Made by a program: the position numbers and the translations under genes. Shown in pieces: positions 4,947 to 47,270 of a DNA stretch of 64,000 nucleotides (position 1 is the first letter of the stretch; the number at the start of each line of letters is the position of its first letter). The notes beneath the pieces were generated by a model. It ran no database searches, had not been told where the DNA came from, and saw only the letters and a list, made by a program, of their open reading frames with translations. Source of the stretch: Escherichia phage LH2; the sequence record OQ378934.1; one strand, 5' to 3'.

Positions 4947-5006
4947 TTTCAAAAATTTTTTCACAAAACGGTTTACAACCAAAGCATACTGTGGTACTAT
5001 ACAACT
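4946..5006 (+). promoter_or_regulatory. T4-type early promoter upstream of motA (GTTTAC 4971-4976, TACTAT -10 at 4995-5000)
   Basis: atttcaaaaattttttcacaaaacgGTTTACaacc...gtggTACTATacaactatcaac; near-identical to the promoters at 1323 and 22340. Confidence 0.75.
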
Positions 5007-5041
5007 ATCAACTACTGATACAGAATTACGGAGATTAGAAA

Positions 5042-5677
5042 ATGTCTAAAGTAACTTACATCATCAAAGCTTCTAACGATGTTCTGAATGAAAAAACTGC
5101 TGCGATTTTAATTACCATTGCTAAGAAAGATTTCATTACAGCCGCAGAAGTTCGTGAGGTGCATCCAGATTTAGGTAACGCAGTAGTTAATAGTAATATT
5201 GGGGTATTGATTAAAAAAGGCCTGGTGGAGAAATCTGGTGATGGATTAATCATTACGGGTGAAGCTCAGGATATTATTTCAAATGCGGCAACTTTATACG
5301 CACAGGAAAACGCTCCTGAACTGCTGAAAAAACGAGCAACTCGTAAAGCTCGCGAGATTACTTCTGATATGGAAGAAGATAAAGACCTCATGCTAAAACT
5401 TTTAGATGAAAATGGATTTGTTCTTAAAAAAGTTGAAACTTATCGTAGTAACTATCTCGCTATTTTAGAAAAACGCACTCACGGAATTCGTAATTTTGAA
5501 ATTAACAACAATGGAAATATGCGAATTTTTGGATACAAAATGATGGAACATCATATTCAGAAATTTACTGACATCGGTATGTCATGCAAAATCGCTAAAA
5601 ATGGTAATGTGTATCTTGACATTAAACGCTCAGCAGAAAACATTGAAGCTGTAATCACCGTAGCATCTGAACTGTGA
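5042..5677 (+). CDS. motA: middle-transcription activator MotA
   Basis: 211-aa ORF (T4 MotA is 211 aa) at the T4-syntenic position next to gene 52; gagatt RBS. Confidence 0.9.
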   Translation: MSKVTYIIKASNDVLNEKTAAILITIAKKDFITAAEVREVHPDLGNAVVNSNIGVLIKKGLVEKSGDGLIITGEAQDIISNAATLYAQENAPELLKKRATRKAREITSDMEEDKDLMLKLLDENGFVLKKVETYRSNYLAILEKRTHGIRNFEINNNGNMRIFGYKMMEHHIQKFTDIGMSCKIAKNGNVYLDIKRSAENIEAVITVASEL

Positions 5678-5687
5678 GGAATAAATA

Positions 5688-6017
5688 ATGAACAAGTTAG
5701 AAATTATCAATGAACTTCGTCGTTGTGCAGAACCCACTCAAGAGGGGTGGGATATCTGGTACCATGGAGCTTATCTTGGAACCATCGTAAAGATTAAGAC
5801 TGGCAAATACATGATTATTCGTGAAAGTAAAGATGCTCCAGTAGGTATTCGCAATAATTTCATGGCAGCGATAAGTTCCTTTACGGATTCAGCTTACGAA
5901 ATTTACCTTGCTGATTATAAAGAATTCCAGGAATCTCAACCAGTTATTCGCTCAATTGGTGTTAACAAAGCTCAACAGAAAACTTTGTGGCAACGTATTA
6001 AAGGATGGTTTAAATGA
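5688..6017 (+). CDS. hypothetical protein (109 aa)
   Basis: ORF in motA-arn interval; translationally coupled to the next ORF (ATGA overlap). Confidence 0.5.
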
Positions 6018-6475
6018 ATCCATTTATTAATCGTTTAAAAATGCTGAATGTTCCTTTATCTCGTGAGACTCCAGAAAGTCTTGCTGAAAAATTTAAAGCA
6101 CACGGTTATAAATGCACAGAAGAAGATATTCTAAAAGAAGTTCCTGAAATCTGTTGGCAGTCTGCATACTGGGATGAAAACCAAAAGTATCAACGACGAA
6201 TTGTCTGCGCAGCCAACCGTTTTAAATTAAAAGATGGACGAACTCTTATTATTCCAGGTGCTCGTCATTATTCTAAAGATATGGCAGAAGTTTTAGATGT
6301 AGTTAAACCTCAATTAGTTACTCAACAAGTTTGTGATGATGACCAAGGGTTTATTGACCAATATAGTAATTATTGGACACGTGAAGAAGCAATGATTATT
6401 GCAACTTACGCTGGACAAGTACGTATTGAACGCGGTGGTAGTGAAAAAGAACTTTACTCTGAGGACCTTTACTAA
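6014..6475 (+). CDS. hypothetical protein (153 aa)
   Basis: ORF in motA-arn interval; overlaps neighbours by 1-4 nt. Confidence 0.5.
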
Positions 6476-6771
6476 TGAATATTAAAAAGTTTCAAATTGA
6501 TGGAATTATGAATCAAATCCAGGCACTGGAATATGCCAATAAAATGATGTCAACTAATTGGGGAATTTATACCAATGAACCGGGATTTAAATTCTGTGAT
6601 ATGGAATTCACTAAAAAGCTCGTAGGAAAAGATTATGTATGTCCATTTAGTTCTCCAGTAAATGGAATGCTAAAACCTGCTTTGCGTGATCTTTATATTG
6701 CGATGAACGAAGAAATGATAAAAGAATTAAAACGTCAACTGAAGGTGATTCAATTTGGCCAGGGAAATTAA
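6475..6771 (+). CDS. hypothetical protein (98 aa)
   Basis: ORF in motA-arn interval. Confidence 0.5.
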   Translation: MNIKKFQIDGIMNQIQALEYANKMMSTNWGIYTNEPGFKFCDMEFTKKLVGKDYVCPFSSPVNGMLKPALRDLYIAMNEEMIKELKRQLKVIQFGQGN

Positions 6772-6973
6772 TTCAAAATCTGATTATTTTAATTCTCTCA
6801 ATGATAAAGATAAAAATCTAATACGGCATTTTATCGTTGAGATGGGATATACTGATACACGTGATTTAAGAGAACATATATTTGAATGTGGTGTAGCTAA
6901 AAAGTTTTCATTCACATGCAAATGTTTAAGAGAGGTAATTCAGCACTATGAACAATTTAGTCGCAAAACATAA
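6755..6973 (+). CDS. hypothetical protein (72 aa)
   Basis: ORF in motA-arn interval; overlaps the previous ORF by 17 nt. Confidence 0.4.
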   Translation: MAREINSKSDYFNSLNDKDKNLIRHFIVEMGYTDTRDLREHIFECGVAKKFSFTCKCLREVIQHYEQFSRKT

Positions 6974-7056
6974 TTTTAATAAAGCTTCTGTTCATAAAGA
7001 TAAGAAGAAAGCGTTTAAAGAATCTAATCGCAAACAGAAACATAAGGGGAAGGTCT

Positions 7057-7335
7057 ATGATTATTGATTCTCAATCTGTGGTTCAATATACAATCAAAAT
7101 TGACATTCTAGAAAAGCTATATAAGTTTCTACCAAATTTATACCACTCAATTGTCGATGAATTAGTTGAAGAACTACATCTTGAGAATAATGATTTCTTG
7201 GTTGGAACTTATAAAGATAACTCAAAGGCGGGATATTTTTACGTAATTCCAGCTCCAGGAAAAAGTATTGATGATGTATTAAAAACTATAATGATTTATG
7301 TCCATGATTACGAAATTGAAGATTATTTCGAATGA
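7057..7335 (+). CDS. arn: anti-restriction nuclease Arn
   Basis: 92-aa ORF (T4 Arn is 92 aa) at the syntenic position between motA and asiA. Confidence 0.75.
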   Translation: MIIDSQSVVQYTIKIDILEKLYKFLPNLYHSIVDELVEELHLENNDFLVGTYKDNSKAGYFYVIPAPGKSIDDVLKTIMIYVHDYEIEDYFE

Positions 7336-32777: not shown

Positions 32778-34405
<1,628 letters not shown>

Positions 34406-34429
34406 CTGACATAACATGAGGACTTTATG

Positions 34430-42501: not shown

Positions 42502-42770
42502 TGTTTGTCGTTCACACTATTTATGAAAATGAAGGTAATACTACACGTGATTACGGTCACGTAAATCAATTTTTTAGATGCAATCCAGAATTCCGAGCTC
42601 AAAAAGACGAACGAATTTTTAAAAAATGTGTAGAGCAAGGTTTCATTTACGTCAAGCACTGGATGCAAGGAAATAAAGTTAGAACTACATATCATAAGTC
42701 TTTGCCTGAGCTTAATGATGAATTGATTTATAATAGAGCTGTAAATCAAACTCTGAAGGATGAACAATGA
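42501..42770 (+). CDS. hypothetical protein (89 aa)
   Basis: ORF immediately upstream of gene 30, overlapping neighbours (ATGA/TAATG-type coupling). Confidence 0.45.
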   Translation: MFVVHTIYENEGNTTRDYGHVNQFFRCNPEFRAQKDERIFKKCVEQGFIYVKHWMQGNKVRTTYHKSLPELNDELIYNRAVNQTLKDEQ

Positions 42771-44227
42771 TTCTTAAAATTCTGAATGAAATAGCATCTA
42801 TTGGATCAACTAAGCAGAAGCAAGCAATTCTTGAAAAGAATAAAGATAATGAATTGCTTAAACGGGTATATCGTCTGACTTATTCTCGTGGGTTACAGTA
42901 TTATATCAAGAAATGGCCTAAACCTGGTATTGCTACCCAGAGTTTTGGAATGCTGACTATTACCGATATGCTTGACTTCATTGAATTCACGTTAGCTACT
43001 CGGAAATTGACCGGAAATGCTGCAATTGAGGAATTGACTGGATATATCACCGATGGTAAAAAGGATGATGTTGAAGTTTTGCGTCGAGTGATGATGCGAG
43101 ACCTTGAATGCGGTGCTTCAGTATCTATTGCAAACAAAGTTTGGCCAGGTTTAATTCCTGAACAACCTCAAATGCTGGCAAGTTCTTATGATGAAAAAGG
43201 CATTAGTAAGAATATCAAGTTTCCAGCTTTTGCACAGTTAAAAGCAGATGGAGCTCGGTGTTTTGCTGAAGTCCGAGGTGATGAATTAGATGATGTTCGT
43301 CTTTTATCACGAGCTGGTAATGAATATCTAGGATTAGATCTTCTTAAGGAAGAGTTAATCAAAATGACTGCTGAAGCCCGCCAGATTCATCCAGAAGGTG
43401 TGTTAATTGACGGCGAATTGGTATACCATGAGCAAGTTGAAAAGGAACCAGAAGGCCTAGATTTTCTTTTTGATGCTCCTGAAATCAGTAAAGCTAAAGA
43501 GTTTGCCGAAGTAGCTGAATCTCGTACTGCTTCTAATGGAATCGCCAATAAATCTTTAAAGGGAACTATTTCAGAAAAAGAAGCCAAATGCATGAAGTTT
43601 CAGGTCTGGGATTATGTTCCGTTGGTAGAAATATACGGTCTTCCGGCGTTTCGTTTAAAATATGATGTACGTTTTTCTAAACTAGAACAAATGACATCAG
43701 GATATAATAAAGTAATTTTAATTGAAAACCAAGTAGTAAATAACCTAGATGAAGCTAAGGTAATTTATAAAAAATATATTGACCAAGGTCTTGAAGGTAT
43801 TATTCTCAAAAATACCGATGGATTGTGGGAAAATGCTCGTTCAAAAAATCTCTATAAATTTAAAGAAGTAATTGATGTTGATTTAAAAATTGTAGGAATT
43901 TATCCTCACCGTAAAGACCCTACTAAAGCAGGTGGATTTATTCTTGAATCAGAGTGTGGAAAAATTAAAGTAAATGCAGGTTCAGGCTTAAAAGATAAAG
44001 CCGGTGTAAAATCACATGAACTTGACCGTACTCGCATTATGGAAAACCAAAATTATTATATTGGAAAAATTCTAGAGTGCGAATGCAACGGCTGGTTAAA
44101 ATCTGATGGCCGCACTGATTACGTTAAATTATTTCTTCCAATTGCGATTCGTTTACGTGAAGATAAAACTAAAGCTAATACATTTGAGGATGTATTTGGT
44201 GATTTTCATGAGGTAACTGGTCTATGA
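42767..44227 (+). CDS. 30: ATP-dependent DNA ligase gp30
   Basis: 486-aa ORF (T4 ligase is 487 aa) beginning MILKILNEIASIGSTKQKQAILEKNKDNELLKRVYRLTY, with adenylation motif KADGAR. Confidence 0.95.
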   Translation: MILKILNEIASIGSTKQKQAILEKNKDNELLKRVYRLTYSRGLQYYIKKWPKPGIATQSFGMLTITDMLDFIEFTLATRKLTGNAAIEELTGYITDGKKDDVEVLRRVMMRDLECGASVSIANKVWPGLIPEQPQMLASSYDEKGISKNIKFPAFAQLKADGARCFAEVRGDELDDVRLLSRAGNEYLGLDLLKEELIKMTAEARQIHPEGVLIDGELVYHEQVEKEPEGLDFLFDAPEISKAKEFAEVAESRTASNGIANKSLKGTISEKEAKCMKFQVWDYVPLVEIYGLPAFRLKYDVRFSKLEQMTSGYNKVILIENQVVNNLDEAKVIYKKYIDQGLEGIILKNTDGLWENARSKNLYKFKEVIDVDLKIVGIYPHRKDPTKAGGFILESECGKIKVNAGSGLKDKAGVKSHELDRTRIMENQNYYIGKILECECNGWLKSDGRTDYVKLFLPIAIRLREDKTKANTFEDVFGDFHEVTGL

Positions 44228-44412: not shown

Positions 44413-44435
44413 AGGCCTTCGGGCCTTTAATTTTA
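44411..44435 (+). terminator. hairpin (aaaggccttcgggccttt) plus A/T-run
   Basis: GC-rich inverted repeat directly after the stop at 44412. Confidence 0.55.
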
Positions 44436-44441
44436 TAAATA
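44434..44441 (+). promoter_or_regulatory. late promoter TATAAATA upstream of alt
   Basis: Exact TATAAATA about 30 nt upstream of the alt start; alt is a late, virion-packaged protein in T4. Confidence 0.6.
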
Positions 44442-44470
44442 GAATAAGAATAAACACTAGAGAGGATATG

Positions 44471-46525
44471 ATGGAACTCATTACAGAATTATTTGACGAA
44501 GATACTACTCTTCCGATTACAAACTTAAATCCAAAGAAGAAAATACCGCAAATTTTTTCAGTTCATGTTGATGACGCAATTGAACAACCAGGCTTTCGTT
44601 TATGTACCTATACATCTGGAGGTGATACTAACCGTGATTTAAAGATGGGCGATAAAATGATGCATATTGTTCCTTTTACATTAACTGCTAAAGGTTCAAT
44701 TGCTAAATTAAAAGGTCTCGGTCCAAGCCCAATTAATTACATCAATTCAGTTTTTACTGTTGCGATGCAAACGATGCGTCAGTATAAAATTGATGCCTGC
44801 ATGCTTCGTATTCTTAAGTCTAAAACCGCTGGTCAAGCTCGACAAATTCAAGTTATTGCTGATAGACTTATCCGCAGTCGTTCAGGTGGCAGATACGTCC
44901 TTCTTAAGGAACTCTGGGATTACGATAAAAAGTATGCATATATTCTTATACATCGCAAAAATGTATCGCTAGAAGACATTCCAGGAGTTCCGGAAATTAG
45001 TACCGAGCTCTTTACTAAAGTTGAATCGAAGGTCGGCGATGTTTATATCAATAAAGATACTGGAGCTCAAGTAACTAAAAATGAGGCAATTGCAGCATCT
45101 ATTGCGCAAGAAAATGATAAACGTTCTGACCAAGCTGTAATCGTTAAAGTTAAAATTTCCCGTAGAGCAATTGCACAAAGTCAGTCATTAGAATCTTCTA
45201 GATTTGAAACACCAATGTTTCAAAAATTTGAGGCTTCAGCGGCAGAATTAAATAAACCCGCCGACGCACCTTTAATTTCTGATGCTAACGAATTAACTGT
45301 TATTTCTACTTCAGGATTTGCATTAGAGAATGCTCTTAGCAGTGTTACAGCTGGGATGGCATTCAGAGAAGCTTCTATAATTCCTGAAGATAAAGAATCC
45401 ATTATTAATGCAGAAATAAAAAATAAAGCTTTAGAAAAATTACGAAAAGAATCTATTACTTCAATAAAAACTTTAGAAACTATTGCTTCTATCGTCGATG
45501 ATACTTTAGAAAAATATAAAGGTGCTTGGTTTGAAAGAAATATTAACAGACATTCGCATTTAAACCAAGATGCTGCAAATGAGTTAGTACAAAATTCTTG
45601 GAATGCAATAAAAACAAAGATTATTCGAAGAGAATTACGTGGATATGCTCTTACCGCTGGATGGTCATTACATCCTATAGTCGAAAATAAAGATTCATCT
45701 AAATACACACCAGCGCAAAAACGCGGAATTCGTGAATATGTAGGTTCAGGATATGTAGACATAAATAATGCTCTTTTGGGATTATATAATCCAGATGAGC
45801 GTACAAGTATTTTAACAGCACCTGAAATAGAACAAGCCATTGATAATTTAGATTCAGCCTTTAAAAATGGTGAACGATTACCAAAAGGTATTACTTTGTA
45901 TCGTTCACAACGAATGTTACCTTCAATATATGAAGCAATGGTAAAAAATCGAGTTTTTTATTTTAGAAACTTTGTGTCAACATCATTATATCCAAATATT
46001 TTTGGTACTTGGATGACTGATTCATCTGTGGGTGTTTTACCAGACGAAAAGCGTTTAAGTGTTTCTATTGATAAAACTGATGAAGGGCTTGTTAATTCTA
46101 GCGATAATTTAGTCGGAATTGGATGGGTTATTACTGGGGCTGATAAAGTCAATGTTGTTTTACCCGGTGGAAGTTTAGCGCCTTCAAATGAAATGGAAGT
46201 CATTTTGCCACGTGGATTAATGGTCAAAGTTAATAAAATAACCGATGCATCTTACAACGATGGAACAGTTAGAACTAACAACAAGCTTATTCAAGCTGAA
46301 GTTATGACCACAGAAGAACTCACCGAATCGGTAATCTATGACGGAGACCATTTAATGGAAACTGGTGAATTGGTTGCAATGACAGGTGATATTGAAATAG
46401 AAGACAGAGTTGACTTTGCATCATTTGTTTCATCAAACGTTAAACAGAAAGTAGAATCATCTCTCGGAATTATTGCGTCTTGCATAGATATTGCAAACAT
46501 GCCTTACAAGTTCGTTCAAGGATAA
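44471..46525 (+). CDS. alt: ADP-ribosyltransferase Alt
   Basis: 682-aa product from MELITELFDEDTTLPITNLNPKKKIPQIF (T4 Alt is 682 aa); the listed ORF has one extra N-terminal Met. Confidence 0.9.
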   Translation: MELITELFDEDTTLPITNLNPKKKIPQIFSVHVDDAIEQPGFRLCTYTSGGDTNRDLKMGDKMMHIVPFTLTAKGSIAKLKGLGPSPINYINSVFTVAMQTMRQYKIDACMLRILKSKTAGQARQIQVIADRLIRSRSGGRYVLLKELWDYDKKYAYILIHRKNVSLEDIPGVPEISTELFTKVESKVGDVYINKDTGAQVTKNEAIAASIAQENDKRSDQAVIVKVKISRRAIAQSQSLESSRFETPMFQKFEASAAELNKPADAPLISDANELTVISTSGFALENALSSVTAGMAFREASIIPEDKESIINAEIKNKALEKLRKESITSIKTLETIASIVDDTLEKYKGAWFERNINRHSHLNQDAANELVQNSWNAIKTKIIRRELRGYALTAGWSLHPIVENKDSSKYTPAQKRGIREYVGSGYVDINNALLGLYNPDERTSILTAPEIEQAIDNLDSAFKNGERLPKGITLYRSQRMLPSIYEAMVKNRVFYFRNFVSTSLYPNIFGTWMTDSSVGVLPDEKRLSVSIDKTDEGLVNSSDNLVGIGWVITGADKVNVVLPGGSLAPSNEMEVILPRGLMVKVNKITDASYNDGTVRTNNKLIQAEVMTTEELTESVIYDGDHLMETGELVAMTGDIEIEDRVDFASFVSSNVKQKVESSLGIIASCIDIANMPYKFVQG

Positions 46526-46528
46526 ATC

Positions 46529-46914
46529 GTGGAACTTATTACAGAATTATTTGACGGCGCTTCGGCGCCGGTTGTTAACTTAAATCCTAAGCATAAAATA
46601 CCACAAATTTTTGCTATTCAAGCCGGCGAAGAAAGCGTGCTTCCTGGATTTAGATTTTGTACATACACCTCTGGCGGTGATACAAATAAAACGTTAAACC
46701 AGGCGACAAAATGATGCATATCGTAATGATAGGTGTTAATGAGAAACTATCATTAGTTAAGCTTAAAAACTTGGGTGGAAATCCAATTGGTGTCATTAAT
46801 GCTGTTTTTGATACTGCTCTTCAAACAATGAAACAGTATAAAATCGACGCATGCCTATTACGCGTACTAAAAAGTTCAAAATGTAGTTTACAAGTCCCTC
46901 GTGTTGTGTTATAA
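46529..46914 (+). pseudogene. frameshifted partial duplicate of the alt 5' region (alt N-terminal paralog remnant)
   Basis: Two consecutive short ORFs (61 and 67 aa) in different frames: the first parallels Alt residues 1-55 (MELITELFD…PGFRFCTYTSGGDTN), the second Alt residues about 63-125 (MMHIV…LKNLGGNPIGVINAVFDTALQTMKQYKIDAC). Confidence 0.6.
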
Positions 46915-46922
46915 TAATCTTA
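46865..46922 (+). promoter_or_regulatory. T4-type early promoter, second copy of the 34369 cassette (GTTTAC 46886-46891, TATAAT 46910-46915)
   Basis: taGTTTACaagtccctcgtgttgtgtTATAATaatcttactgacataacacgagga; shares a ~55-nt near-identical block with 34369-34425. Confidence 0.6.
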
Positions 46923-46946
46923 CTGACATAACACGAGGAACACAAA

Positions 46947-47237
46947 ATGAAATCTTCTTTGCGCTTTTTAGGTCAAGAACTTGTAGTTGAAGGCGTTATT
47001 CCTGCTGATAATGCTTTTAATGAAGCAGTTTACGATGAATTTATCAAAATTTTTGGAACAGATAAAAAGTTCGGAATTTTTCCTTCTGAAAATTTTTCAA
47101 AGCCAGAGCAGACTGAAAGTATTTTCCAAGGTGTAGTAACAGGTAAATTTGAGTCAGAAGCTCCGGTAAAAATTGAAGTTTATATTGAAGACAGTTTAGT
47201 TGCTTCAGTTGCTGCTTTTATTTCATTCCGTAAATAA
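46947..47237 (+). CDS. hypothetical protein (96 aa)
   Basis: ORF with cgagga RBS downstream of the duplicated promoter cassette; followed by a bidirectional hairpin. Confidence 0.5.
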   Translation: MKSSLRFLGQELVVEGVIPADNAFNEAVYDEFIKIFGTDKKFGIFPSENFSKPEQTESIFQGVVTGKFESEAPVKIEVYIEDSLVASVAAFISFRK

Positions 47238-47239
47238 AA

Positions 47240-47270
47240 ATATGGGGACCGAAAGGTCCCCATTGTTATA
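47240..47270. terminator. bidirectional hairpin terminator (atggggaccgaaaggtccccat) between convergent genes
   Basis: GC-rich hairpin flanked by A/T runs on both sides, between the + strand ORF ending 47237 and gene 54 (-) ending 47266. Confidence 0.65.

Follow-up and report, generated by a model that had tools for sequence, protein, structure and literature searches.

The alt.-1 and alt.-2 reading frames of a T4-like phage are very probably the decayed remnant of a full-length second alt gene

The alt locus and its two short reading frames

We analyzed a stretch of 64,000 nucleotides from Escherichia phage LH2 (OQ378934.1; hereafter, the window), which its ORF map and sequence identify as a T4-like phage (Tequatrovirus), with a T4-like gene order in the orientation opposite to that of the T4 reference record (Table 1). 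The product of its intact alt gene is 98.2% identical to T4 Alt, whose start corresponds to the second ATG of the window gene (44471), and carries the Pfam domain ADPrib_exo_Tox (PF03496) at residues 374–614 (E 1.4e-34). A putative late promoter, TATAAATA (44434–44441), lies ~30 nt before alt and directly 3' of a terminator-like hairpin; judged from the sequence, its position would fit late synthesis of Alt for packaging. In all layouts seen, alt.-3 comes after either the second alt gene described below (altB) or its remnant. Between alt.-3 and the converging gene 54, a GC-rich hairpin with a 9-bp stem (47242–47263) scores as a terminator on either strand, and the annotation of phage fPS-2 marks terminators for each strand at the corresponding position.

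Table 1 Features of the alt locus in the window, with the second copy of the promoter cassette.
Feature	Position	Strand	Description
Second promoter and stem-loop cassette copy	34369–34423	+	Between two ORFs read as rnlA and alc
DNA ligase	42767–44227		From the ORF map
alt.1			62-codon ORF (T4 alt.1), between DNA ligase and alt
Putative late promoter, TATAAATA	44434–44441	+	Match to the T4 late-promoter consensus, read from sequence
alt (altA)	44468–46525	+	Intact ADP-ribosyltransferase gene; 685 codons from first ATG
alt.-1	46529–46714	+	First piece of the altB remnant; 61 codons, GTG start, 186 nt with stop
A4 run	46688–46691	+	A5 in intact altB; 1-nt loss gives frameshift (alignment with wV7 altB)
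alt.-2	46711–46914	+	Second piece of the altB remnant; 67 aa, 204 nt with stop
Deletion junction, CTAAAAAGT	46867–46875	+	One copy left of a 9-bp direct repeat (alignment with wV7)
Last 11 nt of original altB, TCAAAATGTAG	46876–46886	+	TAG stop at 46884–46886
Early-type sigma-70 promoter of alt.-3	46886–46915	+	GTTTAC, then TGTTATAAT; 11/12 consensus matches, TG extension
Stem-loop	46894–46941	+	RNA fold; 3' arm holds the alt.-3 Shine-Dalgarno GAGGA (46935–46939)
alt.-3 (DUF5498)	46947–47237	+	Intact gene downstream; 96-codon ORF; Pfam PF17602, E 1.4e-64
Genes 54 and 48			After alt.-3, other strand

The two short ORFs between alt and alt.-3 are the T4 genes alt.-1 (NP_049810) and alt.-2 (NP_049809). 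A sequence-only reading of the window had seen in them two frames that re-encode the start of Alt, and BLASTP bears this out: Alt.-1 aligns with Alt residues 2–63 (37/62 identities, 60%, E 1e-23) and Alt.-2 with residues 64–118 (34/55 identities, 62%, E 2e-21). The N-terminal 118 residues of T4 Alt, the head-packaged NAD-protein ADP-ribosyltransferase, are homologous to the remnant at the same 60–62% identity. The likeness is also present in the DNA, for which the same reading had proposed a comparison with the 5' end of alt: identity between 44471–44824 and 46529–46877 is ~66% in a simple global alignment. The frame of alt.-2 is −1 relative to that of alt.-1, and the TGA of alt.-1 and the ATG of alt.-2 overlap as ATGA. 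Each piece has sequences unique to it (for instance GASAPVVNLNPK in Alt.-1 and LSLVK...GGNPIGVINAVFDTALQTMK in Alt.-2). The likeness to alt ends at ~46875 (Leu-Lys-Ser, codon 118). With the frame repaired, the fragment is 128 aa long and has no Pfam match; since it lacks the ADP-ribosyltransferase catalytic domain PF03496, which is present in the Alt of the window and in the AltB of phage wV7, it cannot be an ADP-ribosyltransferase.

The pair alt.-1/alt.-2 is already known from T4 annotation and the literature. The part of the T4 RefSeq note that describes them explains alt.-1 and alt.-2 together by an old duplication of the beginning of alt, which then received a stop codon. Nolan et al (2006; PMC1524935) agree on an old duplication of the alt start and also describe duplicates of alt, both full and partial, in 44RR and RB49. 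In the portion of the fHoEco02 note available to us, residues 1–54 are described as like T4 Alt.-1 and residues 62–112 as like another T4 protein; the PaulHMueller record names its second alt gene Alt2, and the fPS-2 record labels the fragment a putative pseudogene. A literature search for 'Alt2' found nothing relevant, and T4 head reviews contained nothing specific on the Alt N-terminus. Position, lengths (186 and 204 nt), frameshift and deletion junction are all shared between the T4 genes and those of the window. At protein level, the only difference between the window and several T4 strain sequences is the residue invented to bridge the frameshift of the query, and the T4 reference record differs at codon 17; in the DNA, the window has GTG rather than ATG at the start of alt.-1 and a few synonymous differences. 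More broadly, 90 phage records have the full 901-bp layout in common with the window at 97–98% identity. A sequencing error as the source of the frameshift is ruled out, as the same two-piece 383-nt layout occurs in more than 40 independent records, many T4 sequences among them.

An intact second alt gene in relatives

With tblastn, the frame-repaired fragment gave an uninterrupted 96–97% match to residues 1–116 of AltB in many Tequatrovirus genomes, and the genes holding these matches are annotated as Alt-like ADP-ribosyltransferase. In 398 of the 488 records with this sequence, including T2, T6 and wV7, it is the start of an intact 685-aa altB. Record counts given here are from GenBank phage records; a search of IMG/VR with the alt.-3 protein yielded five loci. 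The locus of wV7 consists of ligase, alt.1, a 697-codon altA, a 685-codon altB 3 nt further on, and alt.-3, and T2, T6, phiD1, RB6, fHoEco02 and PaulHMueller share its layout (altA, a 2,058-bp altB, then alt.-3). Record labels for the full-length second gene are 'Alt-like RNA polymerase ADP-ribosyltransferase', 'alt.-2' or 'Alt2'. In T2, T6, RB6, wV7 and the BASEL phages, this gene lies in the same place as the fragment, between altA and the alt.-3 promoter, and its first 116–118 codons and last 11 nt are the sequence of the window, which differs in lacking 1,699 bp (the PF03496 domain included) and in having a frameshift added. Set against altB, alt.-1 contains codons 1 to ~54, after which the frame is lost, and alt.-2 contains codons 62–118. 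An intact altB, being 3 nt after altA, would be on the same transcript from TATAAATA.

In wV7 both proteins have the PF03496 domain (residues 416–620 in AltB), and altA and altB are ~41% identical over their full length, so the paralogy is old and full-length. Their C-terminal halves are ~35–40% identical, which contradicts an origin of altB by recent fusion of the fragment with alt 3' sequence. These comparisons also bear on the reading of the fragment as a primary partial tandem duplication of the first ~120 alt codons that later gained a stop and a new start. That is how the T4 RefSeq note has it, it is all that one genome alone can show, and the sequence-only reading likewise spoke of a partial duplication. 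We consider it extremely improbable: the fragment shares ~97% identity with the start of a full-length paralog (398/488 records) but only ~60% with the neighboring alt, its last 11 nt before the promoter are the 3' end of that paralog, a 9-bp repeat flanks the missing segment at both ends, and a fragment cannot regrow a diverged 567-codon body with a catalytic domain. What was duplicated would instead have been the full-length gene, now an old paralog, which a 1,699-bp deletion later cut. The other half of the sequence-only reading, that this is a decayed paralog, holds, with ~97% protein identity to the first 116 residues of the intact second Alt, disabling mutations and relaxed selection (see below), and the comparison with T4 and relatives that it suggested shows the T4 genes alt.-1 and alt.-2 and the intact altB that most relatives keep. 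Taken as a whole, 46529–46914 is very probably a pseudogene: what is left, truncated and frameshifted, of the 5' part of altB, once a second alt gene of full length.

The alt genes vary in other ways as well. There are two classes of altA allele (682–684 aa and 695–697 aa). Identity between them is ~100% in the first ~200 residues and close to the C-terminus, but falls to 21–31% in the central region and 44–73% over the catalytic part. As either class occurs both with intact and with deleted altB, the locus is a recombination mosaic. Phage vB_EcoM_KAW1E185 (positions 5001–7058 of locus L004) has a single alt, of which the first ~85% is altA-like and the last 10% is 97% identical to wV7 altB; by these identities it looks like an altA–altB fusion from a different deletion at the same locus. 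In other T4-related genera too, for example in IME08 (with its 'altb'), LQ5, dhaeg and Aeromonas and Shewanella phages, two or three places per genome resemble the Alt N-terminus. Within the subfamily, alt thus seems to have been expanded in tandem and lost more than once.

The deletion junction and the promoter cassette

Nine intact genes have 2,057 nt between the altB start and the promoter (the same in two further metagenome-derived loci as in seven annotated intact records), and remnants without the frameshift have 358 nt, which leaves 1,699 bp missing. When aligned with wV7, the window is nearly identical from the altB start to CTAAAAAGT, and it matches again from another CTAAAAAGT located 11 nt short of the end of altB. 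Intact altB has CTAAAAAGT twice, 1,699 bp apart, with the left copy at codon 116–118. The right-hand copy is present in 9/9 intact altB genes examined; the left-hand repeat is exact in six of the nine and reads CTAAAGAGT in three. Beyond the joint, TCAAAATGTAG (46876–46886) is identical to the altB 3' end in wV7, T2 and T6, and the G of the altB TAG stop is the first base of the −35 element GTTTAC. Junction-specific searches found the deletion joint in 90 records (including T4) and 398 records continuous there, and all 90 share one 1,699-bp internal deletion. Lost with it were altB codons 119 to ~681, including the ADP-ribosyltransferase domain. As 1,699 cannot be divided by three, the remnant is read past the old stop: the last 13 codons of alt.-2 are junk that crosses the 11 nt left from the altB 3' end and enters the promoter, where the TAA within TATAAT (46912–46914) ends the frame. 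Replication slippage and short-homology recombination would both be expected to leave a joint of this kind, between short direct repeats, and one of them was presumably the molecular mechanism of the altB deletion.

The promoter at 46886–46915 is the first half of a repeated ~55-bp cassette. The sequence-only reading had called this cassette duplicated, and it is: the promoter half recurs at 34369–34398 with one mismatch in 30, a match of which none is expected by chance. The ORFs on either side of this second copy (34369–34423) we take, from their translations, to be rnlA (gene 63) and alc. Both copies (34369–34423 and 46886–46941) combine an early promoter, a stem-loop and a ribosome-binding site. 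At the alt locus, the stem-loop folds at −23.2 kcal/mol (z = −4.9), and 0/200 shuffles were as stable. As predicted from this fold, the hairpin would hide the downstream Shine-Dalgarno in a read-through RNA; a transcript from the cassette's own promoter would be without the 5' arm, leaving the Shine-Dalgarno exposed.

In its strong sigma-70 promoter and stable stem-loop, repeated elsewhere in the genome, 46886–46941 resembles the promoter-early stem-loop (PeSL) cassettes described in T4-type phages (Arbiol et al, 2010; Comeau et al, 2014; PMC2839356, PMC4122927). It differs from them in that the stem-loop is not a separate terminator but extends over the −10 element and the ribosome-binding site downstream. 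A role in insertions and deletions of T4-type genomes has been proposed for PeSL cassettes (PMC2839356, PMC4122927), and this one recurs at 34369. The deletion could be imagined as recombination at the repeated promoter and stem-loop (PeSL-type modular shuffling), and the sequence-only reading suggested the cassette as the breakpoint. We give this next to no credence. The cassette adjoins the altB stop identically in intact and deleted genomes, no copy of it is found at altB codon 118, and 11 nt of altB 3' coding sequence stand between it and the joint; unlike in a PeSL-mediated indel, the joint is outside the cassette, inside altB at CTAAAAAGT. The cassette at 46886 is a neighbor of the remnant, not its cause.

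Decay of the remnant and what it means

For the comparison of lesions, 20 sequences were used, consisting of 11 remnants (the window included) and 9 intact genes. The loss of 1 nt from the A5 run, which makes the two-ORF look, was found in 7/11 remnants (including the window and T4) and 0/9 intact genes. A second lesion, a change of Glu6 from GAA to TAA, puts a stop at codon 6 in 4/11 remnants. The Lutter remnant has both the codon-6 stop and the frameshift, and that of F25 has a second 1-nt deletion, late in the alt.-2 frame. The change of the start codon from ATG to GTG is limited to the window, being absent from the 19 other aligned sequences, and none among 490 records is identical to the window over 46499–46559. 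Phage N2 and several others have a single open frame of 128 codons and no frameshift. The sequence-only reading had left room for one intact gene after sequence correction; in N2, where there is no frameshift to correct, the frame stops at these 128 codons and has no catalytic domain. Since the lesions are distributed incongruently among remnants, recombination among lineages or recurrent slippage is indicated. Programmed frameshifting was also considered as an explanation of the two frames and was rejected on inspection: the A4 run shows no canonical −1 slippery heptamer, and the lesions vary from remnant to remnant.

Substitutions give a similar picture. Those private to remnants comprise 8 nonsynonymous and 3 synonymous changes, and those private to intact genes 0 and 16, respectively (Fisher p = 7e-5; a small sample of 20 sequences and 27 private substitutions, with recombination left out of the model). 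The nonsynonymous/synonymous ratio of the remnants is near the neutral expectation, although recombination between lineages blurs which substitutions postdate the deletion. On these sequences, the N-terminus of intact altB appears strongly conserved and that of the remnant not; this points to relaxed selection, the direction of which is clear. Of the private amino-acid changes, 2 are in the alt.-2 part and 6 in the alt.-1 part. The ATG start of alt.-2 is kept in 11/11 remnants, and its frame is unbroken in 10/11, with F25 as the exception. The remnant persists in at least 90 sequenced genomes.

Persistence could be taken to mean that one or both ORFs are functional small proteins, for example an N-terminal Alt-like peptide that is packaged in the head or disturbs the packaging or activity of Alt, or a product of translational recoding that joins the alt.-1 and alt.-2 frames. 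The first nine residues of the remnant, MELITELFD, are identical to those of Alt, presumably the processing and packaging end of that protein. An AGGA stands 6 nt upstream of the start codon, translation of the two frames could be coupled through the ATGA overlap, and the one break in the alt.-2 frame, in F25, is near the 3' end. As the remnant is part of the alt transcript and has a usable ribosome-binding site in front of it, short peptides may still arise; they might be made late and enter the head or modulate Alt packaging, and the alt.-2 ORF might be the selected part of the remnant. Against this, there are several independent lesions, the A4 run is not part of a canonical −1 slippery heptamer, and 398 relatives keep the full gene instead. 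The codon-6 stop, the loss of the window's ATG start and the surplus of amino-acid changes relative to the intact copies speak against function, at least for alt.-1. We thus regard small proteins as a very unlikely reason for the remnant to have been kept, and there is similarly only a slim chance that the T4 lineage retained the AltB N-terminus as one or two of them after the enzyme domain was lost. We infer that the leftover ORFs are without function.

The findings fit a history in which altB was lost by deletion. The ancestor of the T4 genus would have had two diverged tandem genes, altA and altB, of ~685–697 codons each and each with an ADP-ribosyltransferase domain, 3 nt apart and probably co-transcribed, followed by the early promoter/stem-loop cassette and alt.-3. 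In the lineage of T4 and the window, a deletion of 1,699 bp between the two 9-bp CTAAAAAGT repeats would have left a 128-codon ORF with no catalytic domain. This remnant would then have drifted unconstrained, with the 1-nt loss in the A5 run producing alt.-1 and alt.-2, and in the window the start codon would have changed further, from ATG to GTG. Three hallmarks of a pseudogene are found here, namely an intact orthologous gene at the same locus in relatives, disabling lesions and relaxed selection, and the remnant is very probably an ordinary pseudogene. To the earlier accounts, the present comparison adds where the remnant came from (a deletion within a full-length altB), the exact position of the joint and the evidence for neutral decay.

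In T4 and ~90 related genomes, alt.-1 and alt.-2 are labeled variously as 'hypothetical protein' or 'ADP-ribosyltransferase', and it would be better to annotate the two together as a single pseudogene, derived from the second alt gene. The locus is a clean case of gene loss in a phage, by a deletion at 9-bp direct repeats that was followed by neutral decay. In having a single Alt enzyme, T4 is atypical of its genus, as T2, T6 and ~80% of the sequenced relatives with this sequence have two diverged ones, and this is relevant when results on host ADP-ribosylation by T4 are extended to other phages.
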